Part shown: positions 2,920 through 49,859 of the stretch, piece after piece
Layout of the letters: every line of letters starts with the position of its first letter
Position numbering within the stretch: position 1 is the first letter of the stretch
Source: Ginglymostoma cirratum
Lineage: Eukaryota
DNA length: 64,000 nucleotides
Assembly (NCBI GenBank): GCA_024137785.1
Contig: JAHRHZ010000002.1
Span: forward strand, 4,359,329-4,423,328
Direction: 5' to 3'
The notes under the pieces: model-generated
What the model was told of the DNA's origin: nothing
The model's database searches: none
What the model saw: only the letters and a program-made list of their open reading frames with translations
Made by a program: the position numbers and the translations under genes

Positions 2920-4341
2920 GATTGTAAAGCAGCTACATTTGTTTCCTTTTAAAAAAAGGAGACAGACCATGAAAATATCTGCAAAACATCAGCAGCCAAA
3001 GTAAGACTGCAATATTGAACAGCATGCAATCCCAGCCTTAGACCAGTGCAGAAAGATTCCTGAAAATAATTGTAAACATTACAAACATCCTGATAGCAAT
3101 TCTAAATAATCCCATCTGTTGAACTAATTAATCCTTTTGGACGTCAGTGAAAGGAAACAAAAGGGCTATTGCTTTTGAAGCATCTTTGAAGTACAGTATC
3201 CTCTAATTCTATTTCACTGGAGTCTGGGTGTGACAGGGCATAGATACAGGGACAATGTTTAATTAGCATCAAGCTATAGGTTTTTAAATTTGACACATGT
3301 TGGTAGGCAAGAACAGACACCTCACTGCATTTTTGCCCCTAAACTGTAATCTCATTAGTAAGAGGCAAGCTTCTGATGGAGTAGCCTGAACTACCTGAAA
3401 TAGCCACCACGTTAGAAATAAATAGTGACTCATGCTGATTGACTGGTCTAGGTAACAAAGTCAGCACAAGAACTTTCATCCAAGCAAAGTGCAGGATCAT
3501 GAGAAATTGGAGTTATGTACTATGGCAGAAATAGGAACTGAACATACTGTAGAAAGCAGCATAGTAGGATTGGATTGTCTTTGTTAATCAAAAAGCTATT
3601 CTCCAAGTTCAGCAGTTCATAGGAAAGGTAAATTAGTACTGGCCCTTATTCTATTGAAAGAGTGCAAAAATAGGAAGGTTTTCCAAAAAAAAAACCTGTA
3701 AATTGCTAGTGTAACTACACCCAGAACAGTGAACAGTACGTTCCCCAGATAAAGACCGATATAATAGAATTTAAAAAAGTTTACTAGGTATATGGAGAGA
3801 TCATACAGAGTTTGAGCTTGTACTCAATGGAGTGCATGTTGAGAAGCTTATTGTAAAATTCAGATCAGCCATTTCATGAACGTCAGAGCCAAGTGACCTC
3901 CTTCTGCCGTGAGTGGTTGTAATACTGCGATTTAGAGCTTTAAAGAACAAAACTATTGGAAATGCTCCCACATGCAAAGGCGACCACTCAGTACATAGAG
4001 CTGTATAGTACAGCTGAATAAACTGTACAATTTACAACACCAGGTCCATAGTCTTACAGGTTACAGTAAGAAGTGCAGGTTTGTTTTAAAAGAAATAAAA
4101 GATTTCCACTTTAACAAAGCTGACAAAAGATTCCAAACGCTTACTGCCCTCCGATGAGAAAGTTTCCCCCATCACCTCTAATCCTTCTAGTAATCACTTT
4201 AAAAATCAGTCCCTAAAGTCTCCACGTTAGGGTAATCACAATTTCAAGTTGTGCCTGATGCACTCTAGTCTAGGTGGGGGCAGTAATGTTAAAGAGACTA
4301 AGTTTCCCCCCCGGGGTCTACAGGCTGCACTGGGCTCTTAC

Positions 4342-4444
4342 CGGCTCCGCTGTCCCTCTCGCCGTTAAAGATAACCAGGACCGCGATAAGGAAAGGGATC
4401 CGTATCCACAGAGAGCGGGAAGCAGCGCCACCCAGCGACAGCAT
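4342..4444 (-). CDS. Probable MHC class II beta chain, exon 1 (signal peptide); the rest of the gene lies beyond the window's left edge
   Basis: Not in the ORF track. ATG at 4444, MLSLGGAASRSLWIRIPFLIAVLVIFNGERDSGA + G, then a GTAAGA donor; 103 nt, phase 1. CpG-rich, has a hydrophobic core, and lies downstream of an X1/X2-Y module. It resembles shark class II beta leaders from memory; no beta-1 exon is visible to confirm. Confidence 0.75.
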
Positions 4445-4498
4445 AGTTATACTGTAACAGTCACAAACTCACACTGAGTGCGGCTGGGGGGGAGCTGT

Positions 4499-4510
4499 CT
4501 TTAAATAAAG
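4499..4510 (-). promoter_or_regulatory. TATA-like element upstream of the putative beta exon 1
   Basis: CTTTATTTAAAG on minus, about 55 bp upstream of the ATG and just downstream of a CCAAT at 4521. Confidence 0.45.
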
Positions 4511-4535
4511 ATCCGGGCAACCAATCAATCAGCAC

Positions 4536-4691
4536 GGAAACTGGACCAACCAATCAGAGTGGAAACTGGACCAACCAATCAGNNNNNNNNNNGGAAACTG
4601 GACCAACCAATCAGAGTGGAAACTGGACCAACCAATCAGAGTGGAAACTGGACCAACCAATCAGAGTGGAAACTGGACCAACCAATCAGAG
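4536..4691. repeat. 25-bp tandem repeat GGAAACTGGACCAACCAATCAGAGT; each unit carries a Y box (CTGATTGGTT on minus)
   Basis: CCAAT at 4550, 4575, 4607, 4632, 4657 and 4682, with identical units. A 10-N gap at 4583-4592 means the copy number is uncertain (at least 6 as assembled). Confidence 0.95.
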
Positions 4692-4730
4692 GGGTAGATC
4701 CAAATGAACTTTGGATGCCGTACATCAGGA

Positions 4731-4830
4731 ACAAAAACAGAAGTTGCTGGAAAAACTCAGCAGGTCTGGCAGCATCTGTGAAGAAAAGGTCAGAGTTAAC
4801 GTTTCGGGTCCGGTGACCCTTCCTGAGAAC
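4731..4830 (-). mobile_element. Same short element family, inserted inside the beta promoter
   Basis: Near-identical to 2823-2919. The hammerhead core is mutated (CTCAGGA). Confidence 0.8.
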
Positions 4831-4930
4831 CTGCTCACAGTAGAGTTATGTAAGGCCAATCAAGATGACGCAGGACATATCCAATCACGGTAGACTAATA
4901 CTGGTCCAATCAGCATAGTGAAGCGATGGC

Positions 4931-4974
4931 CCAATCAGAGACGAGCTACGCACCTTCGTCATCTGTTGCTGTGG
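4931..4974 (-). promoter_or_regulatory. X1/X2-Y module of the putative class II beta promoter
   Basis: Minus strand CCACAGCAACAGATGACG (X1 plus CRE-like TGACG X2; compare HLA-DRA CCTAGCAACAGATG), a 21-bp spacer, then a perfect CTGATTGG (4938-4931). Confidence 0.85.
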
Positions 4975-5504
4975 GAAGCAAATCCCGTTTAAAAAAGATT
5001 TAATTAGTCGGATCATATAGGTCAGCCTCTATAACCCAGTGCCGCGGCGGCGGAGGAACGTGGCAGCATCGGTGGAGATATAGAGATGAAGATTCGGTTC
5101 TTCTGATGCTGCTGGGTCTGCTGTGTACCTCCAGCACCATACTGTGTTGTCTCTGACTCCAGCATCAGTTGCTCTTACTATCTCTGGGTCAGCCTATAGT
5201 CATGAATCTCGAACTTAAATCATGAGTGGTACTGTGGTTCAGTGATTGGCATTGTTGTCTCAGCTCTAGGGACCTCTGTTTAATTTTGGAGTTGGGTGAA
5301 TCGCTGCGTTGAATTTGCACGTTCTTCCCCCACCCCTAATGGTGTAGGTTTATGTAGGATGCTCATTATCCAAATGGTCTCATCCTGCACTGTAGGGGGC
5401 ACTATCATGGTCTACATCATCCTGCTTTCAAGGGACTGGTGACCAATCAAAAGCAGGGGTCACATCAGTTTTGAAGAAGGTTAGAGATGTTGGCTTTATC
5501 CACA

Positions 5505-23720: not shown

Positions 23721-23848
23721 AAAAAAATGCAATTCTGGTATTTGGTTATTATTCAGTACCTTGTATTTGCATGTTTCTCTTTTATTTTGAGTAAAGCTAA
23801 AAAGTTAAAGCTTTCTAATACCAAATTATAATCAAGTCTCTCACTGAC

Positions 23849-24130
23849 CCCAGAATACAGTTACTGGATCCTGTAGGCTCGAATGTTCCACATGACAGGA
23901 GTACATGTCTCCAGGACTCGGGACAATGCTCAGGTATGAAAATCTACGAAATGTAAAATCCTCTTTAATATAGAACTCAGTGATGTTATCGCCATCAGTC
24001 ATGGGCTCATTGTTTCTTCTCCACTTCATGGTGATGTGTGGAGGGTAGAATCCATCAGCGAAACAGATCAATGTGTTCAGCTGCCCCCATTCTACAAGGT
24101 CCTCAGAATACACAGAGACTTCAGGACGAA
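23849..24130 (-). CDS. DAA: MHC class II alpha chain, exon 3 (alpha-2 C1-set Ig domain)
   Basis: TACTTTACAG acceptor and GTCAGT donor; 282 nt. VRPEVSVY...GQLNTLICFADGFYPPHITMKW...DMYSCHVEHSSL is a typical class II alpha-2 domain with both Cys and the Trp. Confidence 0.97.
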
Positions 24131-24899
24131 CTGTAAAGTAAAGGTGAAACACATAAGAGTGCAATATAATCATATCCAAAATTAGATAAGCAGTGTGTAG
24201 TGAGAATCCCTCAGAGTATAACGAAAGTGAGAAAAAAAACTGTAAATAATCTAAGAGAAGAAAACAAATCTAAGAAAGGGAAGTGAAAGAGTTACTCTGA
24301 ATCTTTCTCCCCTAGAACATTGTTAATAATCTGGCTCAACCAGTTCAAATGCATCAGTTGAGTTATTGCAATTGCAGGAGGGGTAACTTCCTCCACCCTA
24401 CAATTCAGCTCATTTGACAACAAAATCAGAAGACCACTCCTCTCTAACCAGACTGATGCCTAATTTAAATGCAAGTCTGCAGCAATAACAAAACTGCAGA
24501 AGTAGCAGAATTCTATCACATCAAAATGGGAGGGACACCCAACATGATTGGAAGTCTGACACAATGTCAAACAGTAGGTTAGAAGCAGCTCAGTGAATCA
24601 TTGATTCAATGTTCAGATTCACAGATAGTCCCCTGATTCCAAATTGCTTCTTCGTCATGTTTCCCCTCTGTTTATATCAGGAATATTTTGCTATCATTTG
24701 GTGTACTTGTTATTATATCTTGATCACAAGGAGCAACAGCAGTTTCAGAAAGCAATTCTCAGTGAGGCACCAGATGAAGTGGAGTTATGTATATACAGCA
24801 AATTTTGATTTAACTGACCCTTCCTCAGAACCCGAAATGTTAATTCTGATTCTTTCTTCACAGACCTGCTGAGCTTTTCCAATAACTTCTGCTTTTGTC

Positions 24900-29569: not shown

Positions 29570-32530
29570 CACTTTCCTTCTCACTGTTTCCCTTGATGCT
29601 CCCTCTCTCCTTTTCTCTCCCTGTCACTCTCCCTTTCCCCCATCTCACCCTTCCCACTCTCTCACTCTCCCTTTCCCCCTCATTCCCCTTTCCTTTACTC
29701 CTCTCTCACTCTGCCTTTCCCTCACCCTTATTCACTCTCCATTACCCACTCTCTCACTCTCCCTTTCCCTCCCTCTCACTCTCACTTTCCCTTCCCCTCA
29801 CTCTCCCTGCCTCTCCCTCTCACTCTCCCTTTCCTCCTCTCAATCTTCCTTTTGCACACTCCCTTATTCTCCCTTTCCTCCCCCTCACTTTCACTTCTCC
29901 CTTTCTCTCCCTCAGTATCTCACTCTCTCCCTTTCCCTCTCCCTCACTCTGTCTCCCCTTCCTTCCTCCAACTGTCCGTTTTTTATTTTCTCACTATTCC
30001 TGTGTCCCTCTCTCTCTCCCTTTCCCTCCGCCTCACTCTGTCTCCCTTTCCCCCTCTCTGTCTCACTTTCCTCCCCCTCACTTTCCCTTTTCCACCTGCT
30101 CACTGTCCTGTCCCCCTTCTCTCACTGTCTCTCCTCTTTGCTCTCCCATTCCAACTCACTGTATGCCTTTCCCCTTCTCTCAATGTCACTCTATCATTCC
30201 CTCATCCTCACTCACCCTTTCCCTTCTAGCCCTCTCCCTTTCACATTCTCTCACTCTCCCTTTCCCTCTCTCATTCCCTCACTCTCATTTTCCCTGCCCC
30301 TCCCTCACTCTCCCTTACCCCCTTACTCTGTCTCCCTTTCCCTCCCCCTCATGCTCCCTTTCTCCATCTCTCACTCTCCCTTTCCCTACCCCTCACTGTA
30401 CCCCTTTTCTCCTCTGTCACTTTCCTTCTCCCTTGTCATCACTCTCCCTTTTCCTTTCCCTCCCTCTCATACATTTCCCTCCCCCCTTTTCTCCGTTCCA
30501 ACTCTCTCTCTCTCCCTTTCCCTCCCCCTCACTGTCCTGTCCACCTCTCTCACTATTCCTTTCACTCTCACTTCTCTTCACTCTCCCTTTCCCTCCCCCA
30601 CCCTCCATCACTCTCCCTTTCCCTCTCACTGTCTCACTCTCTATTTCCGTCTCCTTTCCCCACTGTCTCACTCTCACTTAGCCTTTCCCTCATCCGCACT
30701 CTCCCTTTCCCTTCCCCATTTCCCATTCCCACTGTCTCACTCTCTCTTTTCCTCTCCCTTACTTACCCATTTCCCCTCTCTCACTCTCCTTATCCCAAGC
30801 TCTCATTCCACCGTTGCCTCTCCCTGTCTCCCTTTTCCCCACACTCTGTCTCCCTTTCTCTTCCCTCCACTCTCATTTTTCCTACCCCTCATTCTCCCTT
30901 TCAACCCCCGCTCTTCCTTGTCCCCTCTCTCACTCTTCCTTTTCAATAGACAATAGACAATAGACAATAGGTGCAGGAGTAGGCCATTCGGCCCTTCGAA
31001 CCAGCACCACCATTCATTATGATCATGGCTGATCATCCACAATCAGTATCCTGTTCCTGCCTTATCCCCATAACCCTTAATTCCATTACCTATAAGAACA
31101 CTATCCATCTCTTTCTTGAAAGTATCCAGAGACTTGGCCTCCACTGCCTTCTGGGGCAGAGCATTCCATATATCCACCACTCTCTGGGTGAAGAAGTTTT
31201 TCCTCCTCTCACTCGATCCTCCTCTCTCCCTTTCCCACATTCTCATTTTCCCTTTCCCATTCCCTGTCTTGCACTCTCCCGTTCCCTCTCCCACACTCTC
31301 CCTCCCTCTCACTCTCCCTTTCCCCTTCTCACACTCTTCCTTCCCCTTTCCCTTTCTCCAATCTCCTCCCCGACACTCCGTCTCTCTTTCACCATCTCTC
31401 ACTCTCCCTATCATTCATCCTCACTCTCCCTTTCCCTCATCCTGTCTCCCTTTCCCTCCCTTTCACTCTGCATTTCCCTCCCTCCCTTTCCCACATTCTC
31501 AGTCCTTTTCCCTCTCCTTATTCTCCCGTTCCCCCTCTCTCACTCTCCTGTTTCCCTCTCTCTCACTCTCCCTCCTCCTCATTTCCCCTTACCATTTTCT
31601 CATTCACCCTTTCCTACTCTTTCACTCTCCCTTTCCCTTTCCCTCCCCCTCCCTTTGTCTCCCTTTCCCATGCTCACTCACCTTTCCCTTCTCCTCACTC
31701 TCCATTTTCCTCCACCTTTCTCCCCTTCCCACTCTCTCTCCCTTTCCGTCACCCCTACTCTCTGTTCTCCCCCCTCACTGTCCCTTTTTCCTTCACATGC
31801 TTCCTTTCCCCCCTCTCACTCTCCCTTTCCCTTTCCCTCACTCTCCCTTCCGGTCCTTGTCTCTCCTGTTCTCTGTCTCTCACTCTCCTTTTCCCACTCT
31901 CACCCTCCCTTTCCCAGTTATTCTGTCTTCCTTCCCCCTCTCTCACTCTCACTCTCCCCACTCATCCTTTCCCTTCCCCCAATCCCCATTTCCCTCCCCC
32001 TCACTCTCCATTTTGCTCCACCTCTTCCCCTTCCCACTCTCTCTCTCCCTTTCCCTTGTTCCCACTATCCAATTCCCTCCCTCTCCCTTTCCCTCCCCCT
32101 CACTTCAAATTCCACTCCTCACTCTTCCTTTTCCCCTCTCTCATTGTCCCTCCTCCTTGCTCACCCTTTCCCACTCTCTCATTCTCCTTTTCCCACACTC
32201 TTACTCTCCCTTCCCCTCTTACTCTCCTTTCCTTTCCCCTCACTCTTCTTTTCCCTTCCCCTCACCTTCCCTTCCTCCCTTTCACTTTCATTTCTCCACA
32301 CTCTACCGTTCCCATTCTCACTCTTTCTCCTTCGCACTCTCCCTTTACCACTCTCTCATTCTACCTTTCCGACTCTCTCACTCTCCCTTCCCTTCCCCCT
32401 CACCCTCCCTTCCCCTCCCCCTCACTCTCTCATTCCCTCCCTCTCACTCTCCCTTTCTCACTCTCTGTCTTTCTCTCTCTTCCCCTCTTCCCTTTCCCAT
32501 TCTCTCGGTCTCCCTTTCCCCTTTTCACCC
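29570..32530. repeat. About 3-kb CT-rich (GA-rich on the transcribed strand) degenerate minisatellite in alpha intron 2
   Basis: Recurring CTCTCACTCTCCCTTTCCC-like units with almost no G on plus. A smaller patch occurs at 33540-33830. Confidence 0.95.
30943..31208 (-). mobile_element. CR1 3' end inserted in the CT tract
   Basis: (CAATAGA)n tail; NFFTQRVVDIWNALPQKAVEA. Confidence 0.9.
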
Positions 32531-33540: not shown

Positions 33541-34173
33541 CATTCTTTCACTCACCCTTTCATTTTTCCCAGTCTCTCCCTCTCTCACCATTTCTCTCCC
33601 TTCCTTTTCCATTCTTTATTCAACCATTTCCCCTCTCTGTATATTTCTCTCTTCCTCCATCTCACTCCCCCCGCCCCCACTCCCTGTCTTTCCCAATCTC
33701 TTACCGTCCCTGGTCTCTCACTCTCATTATCATTATATCCCCTTCCCTCTGTCACTATTTCAAACCCCCCACCCCCGGCACCGCTTTCCTTCCTATTCGC
33801 ACTATTCAACTCCTTTATTTTTCCCAGGTTGGCCAAAGAAAAGTCAATCCGGGTGAAATACAAAACCTTTGCACCGCTGAATCATTGGTGCCCACATCCT
33901 TGGCCAACATTCCGTGTTCAAATCAAAGCGGCAGTTTATTTCCCCCCGTACAGAGACTGACGGGGACACACAGCAGGGAAACAGGCCGTTCGGCCCATCT
34001 GAAGGAGCCTGCGGAACAGAAATCTTGGCACCACGTGCAGGCAGATATCCCGGTGACAGCCTCTGAAGGCTCAGTCAGTCTCTCTCACACACACAGGGTT
34101 TCTATCTCACTCCCTGCCCGCACCAGCCCCCAGCTCCCCCGGCCAGGATCGGGCAGTCACATACGGACCTTAC

Positions 34174-34422
34174 CTTTCGGTTCCGGGGTCCCGGCGGACA
34201 GGTTCATGTCAACTTTCAAATTGTTTTTGACGATGGCGATATTGGCTGAGATCGCCGCCTCTCCTCCCTGCATGTGGCGACCGGCAAACTCGGGGATCCG
34301 GGCCACCTCCTTCTTCAGGTTGAAGTCCATGTAGAAAACCTCATCTCCGTCCTCCTCCAGATCAAAGTGTTTCTCGGGACTGCGCTGCTGCACAAAATAC
34401 ACCTGGGTATAATCGTACAGAT
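34174..34422 (-). CDS. DAA: MHC class II alpha chain, exon 2 (alpha-1 peptide-binding domain)
   Basis: TGTCTCTTTCAG acceptor and GTAAGG donor; 249 nt. (Y)LYDYTQVYFVQQRSPEKHFDLEEDGDEVFYMDFNLKKEVARIPEF...ANIAIVKNNLKVDMNLSAGTPEPK contains the class II alpha-1 motifs DGDExFYxDF and NIAIxKxNL, plus an NLS sequon. Confidence 0.97.
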
Positions 34423-35109
34423 CTGAAAGAGACAGGGACAGAGAGATCAAACCAGGGAACACCCGCAGAAGGTGGTTCTCACAGAGTGAGCACTGAGCAG
34501 AGCTTCGGGAGGTGACCCTCCTTCTCACAGCCTGCCTCAGGCACTGGCCAGACCGCAGTTACCAGCTTCCACCCCACCGTGAAAATTACTGGCAACAAAA
34601 TGTTTCCCTAATGCCCCTCGTTTTTCAAGTCGCTGTTATGTTAACGATTTAAGAGAGCTCTTTCGTACGTCTCTTGACACAAATGTTTTTAGTTGTTGAG
34701 GTGTAGAATGATGCAGTGGTCCGGAGTGTGGTGATTATTTAGACAAACTAGGAGCAGGAGTAGGCCATTTGGCCCATCCACCTGCTTTGCCATTCAGTAG
34801 GATCACAGGCTGATCCTCCAGTTCAGTTTCATCTCATGCTTTCTCCCCTTGATGCCTTTAATATGTAAAACTTATTTATTCCTTTCTTCAATATATTCAG
34901 TGAGTTGGCCTCCACAGTCTTCTATGGTAGAGAATTCCCTTTGGGTAAAGAAGCTTTTCCTCATTTCAGTCCTAAATGGCCTACCCTGTGTCCTGAGACT
35001 GAGTCCCCTGGTTCTGGACTGCCCAACTGGGAAAAACATCCTCCCTGCATCTTGTCTGTCCAGCCCTGTTAGAATTTCATGTTTCAGTCAGATCCCCTAT
35101 TCAATGATG

Positions 35110-36190: not shown

Positions 36191-39100
36191 GTCCTTCAAA
36201 ACTCTGGTGAATACTGGCCCAAATAAATCAATCTCTCCTCAGAGGACAGTCTTGCCGTCCCCAGTATCAGCCTTGTGAACCTCTGCTGCACTCTTTCTAT
36301 GGCAAGTATATTGTCTCTTAGATAGGGAGAACAAAACTGCATTATATACAATACTGCAAGTGTGCTCTCACCAAAGCACTGTGTAACTGCAGCAAGACAT
36401 CCCCATTCCTGAACCCAAATCCTCTGGTAATAAAGACCATTTGCTTTCCTAATTGCTCAGTGCACCTGTCTGATTGTATGAAGTAGAGATAAAAGGTACT
36501 GCAGAGTCTGGAGAATCCGAGATAACAAGCGTGGGGCTGGATGAACACAGCAGGCCAAGCAGCATCACAGGAGCAGGAAAACTTGAGGTTACGGGCCTAG
36601 ACCCTTCATCAGAAATGGGGGAGGGGAAGAGGGTTCTGAAATAAATAGGGAGAGAGGGGGAGGCGGATAGAGGAGAGGATAGGTGGAGAGGAGGCAGACA
36701 AGTCGAAGAGGCGGGCATGGAGGCGGGATGATGTTAGTAGATAGGAGATGGGGGTGTGGCTTGGGGTGAGAGGAAAAACAGGTTAGGGAGGTGGAAATGA
36801 GCTGGGCTGGTTTTGGGATGCGGTTGGGGGAGGGGAGATTTTGAAGCTTGTGAAATCCACATTGATACCATTGGGCTGCAGGGTTCCCAGGCTGAATATG
36901 ATTTGCTGTTCCTGCAGCCTTCGGGTGGCATCACTGTGGCATTGCAGGAGGCCCAGGATGGACATGTCTTCTGCGGAATGGGAGGGGGAGTTGAAATGGT
37001 TCGCAACTGGGAGGTGCAGTTGTTTGTTGCGAACTGAGCGCAGGTGTTCTGCAAAGCGGTCTCCAAGCCTACGCTTGGTTTCCCCGATGTAGAGGAAGCC
37101 ACAACGGGTACAGCGGATGCAGTATACCACATTGGCAGATGTTCAGGTGAACATCTGCCTGATGTGGAAAGTCTTCGTGGGGCCTGGGATTGGGGTGAGG
37201 GAGGAGGTGTGGGGGAGGGGGAACACTTCCTGCGGTTGCAGGGAAAAGTGCCGGGTGTGGTGGGGCTGGAGGGGAGTGTGGAGCGGACAAGGGAGTTGCG
37301 GAGGGAGTGGTCCCTCCGGAAGGCAGATAAGGGTGGGGAGGGAAAAATGTCTTTGGTGGTGGGGTCTGATTGCAGATGGCGGAAGTGTTGGAGGATGATG
37401 CGTTGGATCCGGAGGTTGGTGGGGTGGTACGTGAGGACGAGGGGGATTCTTTTTTGGTTATTATTGCGGGGACGGGGCGTGAGGGATGTGTTACGGGAAA
37501 TGCGGGAGACATGGTCGAGGGCGATCTCGACCACTGGAGGGGGGAAGTTGTGGTCCTTGAAGAATGAGGACATCTGAGATGTACGGGAGTGGAATGCCTC
37601 ATCCTGGGAGCAGATGCGGCGGAGGCGAAGGAATTGGGAATGGGGGATCGCATTTTTGCAGGAAGGTAGGTGGGAGGAGGTGTATTCCAGGTAGCTGTGG
37701 GAGTCAGTGGGCTTGAAATGGACATCAGTTTCTAGGTGGTTACCCGAGATGGAGACAGAGAGGTCCAGGAAGGAGAGAGAAGTGTTGGAGATGGTCCAGG
37801 TGAACTTCAGGTTGGGGTGGAAGGTGTTCGTGAAGTGGATGAACTGTTCGAGCTCCTCGTGGGAGCACGAGGCGGTGCCGATGCAGTCATCAATGTAACG
37901 GAGGAAGAGGTGGGGTTTAGGGCCAGTGTAGGTACGGAAGAGGGATTGTTCCACGTAACCTACAAAGAGGCAGGCATAGCTTGGGCCCATGCGGGTACCC
38001 ATGGCCACCCCCTTTGTCTGTAGGAAGTGGGAGGAATTGAAAGAGAAGTTGTTGAGGGTGAGGATGAGTTCGGCTAAGCGGATGAGGGTGTCGGTGGAGG
38101 GGGATTAGTCAGTTCTGCGGGACAGGAAGAAGTGGAGTGCTTTTAGGCCATCTGCATGGGGAATACAGGTGTATCGGGACTGGACGTCCATAGTAAAAAT
38201 GAGGTGTTAGGGACCGGGGAATTGGAAGTTCTGGAGGAGGTGGAGGGCGTGGGTGGTGTCACGGATGTAGGTAGGGAGTTCCTGGACCAAGGGGGTAAAA
38301 ATGGAGTCTAGGTAGGTGGAGATGAGTTCGGTGGGACAGGAGCAGGCGGAGACAATGGGTCGACCAGGGCATTCAGGTTTGTGGATTTTGGGAAGGAGAT
38401 AGAAGCGGGCAGTGCGGGGTTGGGGAACGATGAGGTTGGAGGCGGTGGGTGGGAGGTCACCTGAGGTGATGAGGTTGTGGATGGTTTGGGAGATGATGGT
38501 TTGGTGCTCGGGGGTGGGGTCATGATCCAGGGGGCGGTAGGAGGAGGTGTCAGAGAGTTAGCACCTGGCCTCAGCAATGTAGAGGTCAGTGCACCATACT
38601 ACGACTGCCCCTCCCTTGTCCGTGGGTTTTATGGTGAGGTTGGGATTGGAGCGGAGGGCTGCACGTTCTGCGGTGGAGAGGTTGGAGTGTTTGAGAGGGG
38701 TAGAGAGGTTGAGGCGATCGATGTCTCGACGGCAGTTGGAGATGAAGAGCTTGAGGGAGGGTAGGAGGCCTTGGGGTGGTGTCCAGGAGGAGGGCTCGTG
38801 TTGGAGGTGGGAGAAGGGGTCAGTAGAGGGAGGGTTAGATTCGCGGTTGGAGAAGTAAGCGTGGAGGCGGAGGCGGCGGAAAAACTGCTCAATATCCAAG
38901 CGTGAGCGGTATTCTTGATATGTGGGTGGAGGGGGACAAAGGTGAGCCCTTTACTGAGGACTGACCGTTTGCCCTCAGTAAGGGGGAGGTCTGGGGGGAT
39001 GGTGAAGACTCGGCAGGGCTCAGTGTTGCTGTCTCCTCTGGAGCTGCTGGCTGTGGAGGCAGTGGGCGGAGCATTGTCAGCGTCGGCAGTGGGCGGAGTA

Positions 39101-49597: not shown

Positions 49598-49664
49598 ATT
49601 TTCCAGCCCAGCCTCCTTGAATTAAAACCAGCACCAACACGGAAAAGTAATTCCTCGCTTCCAT
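49598..49664 (-). CDS. DAA: MHC class II alpha chain, exon 1 (signal peptide)
   Basis: Not in the ORF track. The reverse complement reads ATG...MEARNYFSVLVLVLIQGGWAGK + T, then a GTAAGT donor (49597-49592). 67 nt, phase 1; joins exon 2 as T|AT = Tyr. Hydrophobic leader downstream of an X-Y promoter. Confidence 0.93.
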
Positions 49665-49818
49665 TCTGAGCTTCTCGATTCTCTGAGATGCGACAGTCTT
49701 CACCCAGTGCCAGCTCCTCTTGGATTGCTGTGTTTCTCTCCCACACGTTAGGTTTCTAGCTCACTCACTGGAGTGATGTATTATTTGGGTAATTGACATG
49801 TGGTTTGGAGTTAATAAA

Positions 49819-49859
49819 CCAATCACACATCGAGATCTCCTCCATCAGCTGTTTCCAGG
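49819..49859 (-). promoter_or_regulatory. Class II alpha promoter X box and Y box
   Basis: Minus strand CCTGGAAACAGCTG (X1-like, 49859-49846), a 19-bp spacer, then GTGATTGG(TT) (Y box, 49826-49819), about 155 bp upstream of the ATG. Matches the known RFX/NF-Y X-Y module and its ~20-bp spacing. Confidence 0.85.

Follow-up and report, generated by a model that had tools for sequence, protein, structure and literature searches.

The MHC class II promoter is the textbook example of a rigid enhanceosome with a single Y box. In a 64,000-nt stretch of Ginglymostoma cirratum DNA (the window), an initial annotation placed a homogeneous 25-bp minisatellite, with a Y box (an NF-Y site) in its units and an assembly gap inside it, immediately upstream of the TATA-like element and leader exon of a putative class II beta gene. 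This raises the question of what a row of Y boxes does in a promoter of this type and how it relates to the X-Y module.

The beta gene, its start and the array beside the TATA box

The features at the start of the gene are the following (window coordinates, except where a contig is named).

4342-4444, minus strand: class II beta exon 1, coding part (34-codon leader plus one base, GT donor at 4341)
G000:C2:4351472-4351816, beyond the window start: class II beta, beta1 exon (PF00969 match)
G000:C2:4349305-4349748, beyond the window start: class II beta, beta2 exon
G000:C2:4348159-4348353, beyond the window start: class II beta, TM exon
4457-4479, minus strand: approximate transcription start zone, from the 5' ends of RNA run X23 (RNA-seq ends, not CAGE)
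4509-4500, minus strand: putative TATA-like element TTTATTTAAA, assigned from sequence
4519-4528, minus strand: most proximal Y/CCAAT box, variant TTGATTGGTT, slipped by 4 bp and 29 bp from its neighbour
4536-4691, minus strand: young homogeneous 25-bp minisatellite (six CTGATTGGTT boxes in the assembly, 10-N gap at 4583-4592)

The gene downstream of the array is indeed MHC class II beta. Its beta1 exon matches PF00969 with 22.7 bits (cut-off 20.9), and the beta1, beta2 and TM exons were placed 7.5-11 kb past the window start. The leader (4444-4342) is spliced to beta1-type sequence in 171 of 177 RNA reads from run X23, and the same junction is present in contigs of runs X1 and X2. One protein among 11 candidates matched, a class II beta chain of the zebra shark with 79% identity over beta1, whose N-terminus agrees with the leader when the two are compared by eye. 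An ATG at plus-strand position 5087 was considered as the start of a plus-strand leader and rejected: RNA backs the minus-strand leader, the ATG's frame stops after six codons, and the sequence there looks like a repeat tail. A protein search of the genome with beta1 found this locus alone (one of six candidates, a lower bound), which leaves no paralogous beta promoter for comparison. The corresponding profile search with PF00969 gave no match although the beta1 exon is present, and is uninformative. The beta1 start in run X23 differs from that of the assembly, whereas runs X1 and X2 have the assembly form, a sign of allelic or paralogous variation.

In run X23, nine molecules start at 4457 and eight at 4458; depth is about 2.7 per strand class at 4460-4479 and zero above 4480. 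The TATA-like TTTATTTAAA sits 20-50 bp upstream of these RNA 5' ends, and both it and the leader exon lie directly downstream of the young array on the minus strand, in the order originally described.

The array itself was recovered by TRF as a period-25 repeat at 4520-4691 with 6.6 copies. Its six CTGATTGGTT boxes (minus strand; 4548, 4573, 4605, 4630, 4655 and 4680) are all of the CTGATTGGYY matches in the window, where 0.94 are expected; none of 100 shuffles reached six, shuffling being a weak null for a tandem repeat. The units are arranged head to tail, each with an intact CCAAT and good flanks. On the two sides of the 10-N gap the array is perfectly periodic (45 and 99 bases, no mismatch at lag 25), while the boxes across the gap are 32 bp apart, and the phase is broken there. 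Gene, position, Y boxes and gap are as first reported; the most proximal box, the displaced variant TTGATTGGTT, is a seventh. All six matches to a 22-mer of the unit in the 4.36-Gb genome fall at this locus, which points to a local unit rather than a mobile element.

A 55-base contig of the young unit occurs in run X1 and another in run X2. At word size 31 a closed 25-bp cycle would have just this length, and the reads behind it would contain no fewer than 2.2 tandem units, although the two runs belong to one study and carry the assembly's beta1 start, and are possibly not independent of the assembly. Contigs of both runs collapse the array length, and no read of run X23 covers the array, nor any of run X24, for which no reads aligned. 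Contig depths of unit and intron (29.9 versus 7.21 in run X2, 4.5 versus 14.7 in run X1) point in opposite ways and are not copy numbers. The young array exists, and doubt is confined to the number of its copies.

The X-Y module and an older ladder

Further upstream lie four features that bear on the reading of the array.

4694-4833, no strand assigned: dispersed repeat insertion of about 135-140 bp that splits the ladder; boundaries from sequence comparison
4854-4938, minus strand: old ladder of four Y/CCAAT boxes (CCAAT at plus-strand positions 4856, 4881, 4906 and 4931, exactly 25 bp apart), with diverged spacers
4866-4872, minus strand: second CRE/X2-like heptamer TGCGTCA within the old ladder, picked out by sequence and presumably comparable to X2
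4929-4973, minus strand: X1-X2-Y module (X1 box 4973-4960, X2-like TGACGAA 4961-4955, 21-bp spacer, Y box 4938-4929)

The X1 box of the module departs from the HLA-DRA X1 motif, which was used for scanning, at two of 14 positions. TGACGAA follows it and is X2-like, as judged by eye against the consensus. No convincing match to an S/W box about 16 bp upstream of X was found when the alpha and beta promoters were compared by eye. The Y box of the module is the first and most distal box of the old ladder (CCAAT at 4931); the other ten boxes have 7-10 mismatches to the X1 motif at that distance. Similarly, the best X1 match 15-26 bp upstream of each of the seven young boxes has 8-10 mismatches of 14. 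Since no X1 box precedes the young boxes, the array leaves the X-Y spacing untouched and adds stand-alone CCAAT sites. The earlier promoter reading needs dividing. With the array placed between module and start, as that reading had it, a change in array length would shift the module; the boxes that were amplified, however, are not the Y box of the enhanceosome.

The module stands in sense orientation upstream of a transcribed class II gene, and an RFXAP-family gene is present in the genome. Among 43 TGATTGG sites in 144 kb, three have an X1 box (at most three mismatches) at 17-23 bp: those of the beta module, the alpha promoter and a distal site. With the order and orientation of X1, X2-like and inverted-CCAAT Y elements, and a spacer of 21 bp, in common with the MHC class II W/S-X1-X2-Y module, the beta module belongs by sequence to the class II X-Y family. 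It differs from the known module in its distance from the ATG and in the ten further Y boxes. In mammals a fixed X-Y spacing is reported to be essential (PMC4381081), and mouse SXY modules have spacers of 20-22 bp (PMC4374748).

In the assembly the X1 box is 529 bp from the beta ATG, as against 195 bp in the alpha gene and 270 bp in the class I-type gene. Opossum class II modules lie within 273 bp (PMC1351924). The beta module is thus outside the proximal promoter, taken as the first 270 bp or so before the ATG. Subtracting the insertion and some six units would bring it to about 240 bp, an ordinary distance.

The regularity of the old ladder is unusual for its surroundings. Among 20,000 dinucleotide shuffles of positions 4836-5045, none contained even three equally spaced CCAAT, and seven contained four boxes at any spacing. 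Equally spaced runs of at least three (period 10-60) occur twice among 355 CCAAT sites in 144 kb, and both are the ladders described here. Paired positions agree in 47 of 60 cases for the old boxes but in only 32 of 90 for the spacers, against a shuffle mean of 24.9 (p 0.066), so that homology among the spacers is borderline. CpGs are retained in the region (o/e 0.94), and the one genome match to 4836-5045 is the region itself, in a search that may skip common words. Flanks are weak in three of the four old boxes; positions -2 and -1 of the CCAAT are purines in one of four, compared with seven of seven young boxes. The young array lies 174 bp away, with pitch and strand in common, and the whole amounts to eleven CCAAT boxes on one strand (four old and seven young), mostly at a 25-bp pitch. 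Between the young spacer and the old ones, 3-6 of 15 positions agree, no more than chance would give. An origin from LTR12/ERV9-type elements is not supported: in the searches described, both the young unit and the old-ladder region match this locus alone.

The insertion between the ladders belongs to a repeat with 2126 candidates genome-wide, the best of the 40 that were scored being 90-94% identical over 4698-4830. Its end motif resembles that behind a GIY-YIG ORF within the window. It is probably the tail of a Penelope-like retroelement, with a presumed hammerhead-like core that is altered here. An Rfam search of 4300-5300 gave no match, and a target-site duplication, sought by eye, was not established. 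If the insertion (133-140 bp) is taken out, the boxes on its two sides come to lie 34-41 bp apart, which is no multiple of 25. Elsewhere in the window, positions 36490-38950 (minus strand) hold a decayed retroelement with RT-like and GIY-YIG frames and a tail with a hammerhead-like motif; this element, too, is presumably Penelope-like, and the end of its tail resembles that of the promoter insertion.

The initial annotation included neither the older four-box ladder nor the insertion. Their presence turns a one-off duplication into a recurring 25-bp architecture, and the old ladder with its displaced module is more telling than the minisatellite alone.

X-Y modules and 25-bp ladders in the rest of the genome

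Five further X-Y modules were measured and have spacers of 19-21 bp, which gives a range of 19-21 bp for all six. A strict X-Y pattern has four matches in 4.36 Gb, all on this contig (control, zero), suggesting that mammalian-type X-Y modules mark this MHC region. The beta and alpha modules themselves depart from this pattern at fixed positions, so that it shows where modules cluster, not that these two fit it. The four matches are a promoter with a class I-type leader, a facing pair and a site 77 kb past the window start; none of them has a 25-bp ladder. The linked alpha gene was located as follows.

49664-49859, 34157-34558 and 23841-24269, minus strand: class II alpha gene, which shares the strand of beta and lies upstream of it (ATG of the leader at 49664; alpha1, PF00993; alpha2, C1-set)

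The alpha promoter carries one compact X1-Y module (19-bp spacer, a single Y box) and no ladder. The intron between alpha1 and alpha2 contains about 2.9 kb of CT-rich degenerate repeats with a period of about 22 (29605-32487).

On the same contig, an X-Y module with a spacer of 20 (G000:C2:9916777-9916818, minus strand) lies 270 bp upstream of a 16-codon leader exon, which is presumably of class I type. X-Y-like modules are also found on the plus strand at G000:C2:4282405-4282446 and at about G000:C2:4305984, that is, 77 kb and 53 kb past the window start. Both point the other way from the class II genes, no gene start is evident beyond them, and they resemble mammalian distal X-Y enhancers. 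At G000:C2:77895-78076, two facing modules about 100 bp apart have mirror-like flanks; this pair is perhaps a candidate bidirectional promoter of antigen-processing genes.

To the pattern of four CCAATC at a 25-bp pitch, the genome yielded 16 matches in five places, and a backwards control pattern yielded eight. The five places are the two ladders described here, two homogeneous minisatellites in CpG-poor DNA and one 5-bp microsatellite; diverged spacers are found in the old ladder only. One of the minisatellites, unrelated to the array beside the beta gene, lies at about G000:C62:30868600-30868950, where it has the same 10-N gap and occupies the middle of a palindrome whose arms are several hundred bases long. 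The other is a four-copy array adjoining an EGF-type exon, apparently intronic (G000:C9:13995082-13995162). Two unrelated 25-bp CCAATC arrays in CpG-poor, apparently non-promoter DNA indicate that such arrays arise without selection.

Origin and possible role of the ladder

The reading that we prefer, with a probability of roughly one half, is that selection preserved an old NF-Y ladder near the minimal packing distance, which an insertion later split and which re-expanded alongside the TATA box, and that it is likely bound by NF-Y in an open promoter. The old ladder would have arisen by tandem duplication, selection keeping boxes and pitch while the spacers drifted. After the insertion had split it, a proximal rung with optimal NF-Y flanks would have re-expanded by slippage or unequal exchange. 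An RFX/CREB/NF-Y/CIITA enhanceosome is predicted on the distal module, from where CIITA would act, in line with the reported distal action of SXY-type modules (PMC7866136); NF-Y trimers, side by side on the ladder, may hold the DNA open between enhanceosome and TATA, and the ladder may add promoter strength or robustness. A minimal NF-Y distance of 24 bp has been proposed (PMC4982600). At 25 bp, one base above it, every box could be occupied. In human cells, double CCAAT 24-28 bp apart are the class bound by NF-Y with RFX5, in a study where the shortest double-CCAAT distance is 19 bp (PMC4889920); by this lower minimum, 25 bp need not be a packing limit.

Several observations speak in favour of a selected ladder, whose age and conservation are judged from one genome: its regularity against shuffles and nearby CCAAT sites, boxes better kept than spacers, diverged spacers that the other 25-bp places lack, the restriction of the X1 box to the most distal box, the strict X-Y matches on this contig, the RFXAP-family gene, the purine flanks of the young boxes, the retained CpGs and the published NF-Y distances. 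Several sequence features argue against it: the young spacer gives no sign that its unit came from an old rung, taking out the insertion yields no multiple of 25, three of four old boxes have weak flanks along with the borderline spacer homology, the linked alpha gene and the class I-type promoter manage with no ladder, and 25-bp CCAATC arrays occur elsewhere outside apparent promoters.

These last arrays, one of them with a 10-N gap, fit the alternative of a neutral passenger, in which an ordinary minisatellite caught the proximal CCAAT, one or two boxes are enough and copy number has no effect. The eight matches of the backwards control pattern point the same way, as does the disputed in vivo effect of the human ABO NF-Y minisatellite (PMC7187371). 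What such a passenger leaves unexplained is that the old ladder kept its boxes while its spacers drifted, and that an array of the same pitch and strand arose 174 bp away when the genome holds only five such places; on balance we find this alternative rather unlikely. The initial annotation had suggested a polymorphic promoter VNTR in which array length would govern both NF-Y occupancy and the distance between module and start, and so tune class II expression between alleles. Perfect homogeneity suggests a recent and possibly still mutable array, the array is placed between module and start, the gap fits an unresolved repeat cycle (PMC5411770), the beta1 start of run X23 differs from that of the assembly and of runs X1 and X2, and ABO, with one versus four units, offers a precedent (PMC7187371). 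However, no length alleles were observed in contigs that collapse the array, the X-Y spacing is unaffected by the array, and SXY-type modules also act as distal enhancers (PMC7866136), so that a change of 25-150 bp may matter little. We consider this version improbable.

An array made or inflated by assembly would fit the 10-N gap that breaks its phase; at least one assembler, which uses linked reads, writes 10 Ns where its path crosses a cycle that it could not resolve (PMC5411770). The 55-base unit contigs and the old ladder, which has no gap, limit any such doubt to the number of copies, and the explanation is very improbable. A bolder form of the selected ladder holds that an extended NF-Y ladder replaces the single Y and that, a retroelement having displaced the module, a rung was re-amplified as a compensatory, length-variable rheostat linked to beta alleles, possibly with a partly CIITA-independent basal activity; it goes well beyond the preferred reading and is doubtful.

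Known systems share some features with the locus and differ from it in others. The human ABO CBF/NF-Y minisatellite likewise consists of tandem CCAAT units upstream of a polymorphic gene, with 43-bp units in one or four copies about 3.7-3.9 kb upstream, for which binding and length alleles were shown (PMC7187371). The shark 25-bp units, unlike those of ABO, abut the TATA box behind an X-Y module. NF-Y multi-CCAAT modules (24-28 bp; 24-bp dimers in LTR12) share a same-strand pitch that fits adjacent trimers, but are described as usually being pairs in housekeeping, cell-cycle or LTR settings (PMC4889920, PMC4982600), whereas the shark has four plus seven boxes, a CIITA-type promoter and a unit unique in its genome. 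Local motif duplication in a class II proximal promoter is reported for cetaceans; this is one T-box duplication or three 11-bp copies upstream of S, and neither Y boxes nor a phased ladder (PMC6155461). A fish MHC review mentions conserved promoter elements for teleosts (PMC6523485). A literature search that covered largely openly accessible papers turned up neither a shark class II promoter nor a Y-box ladder.

In conclusion, the X-Y spacing of this shark is mammal-like, yet its beta gene has ten extra Y boxes, in two generations and at one pitch, and its module lies at twice the distance from the gene. If the ladder is neutral, the X-Y module tolerates displacement. If the ladder works, it would show how an NF-Y array can be maintained, disrupted and then restored, and it would provide a directly typable candidate for allele-linked differences in class II expression. 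Were the rheostat reading true, a classical class II promoter of the oldest lineage that has an MHC would itself carry an expression polymorphism.
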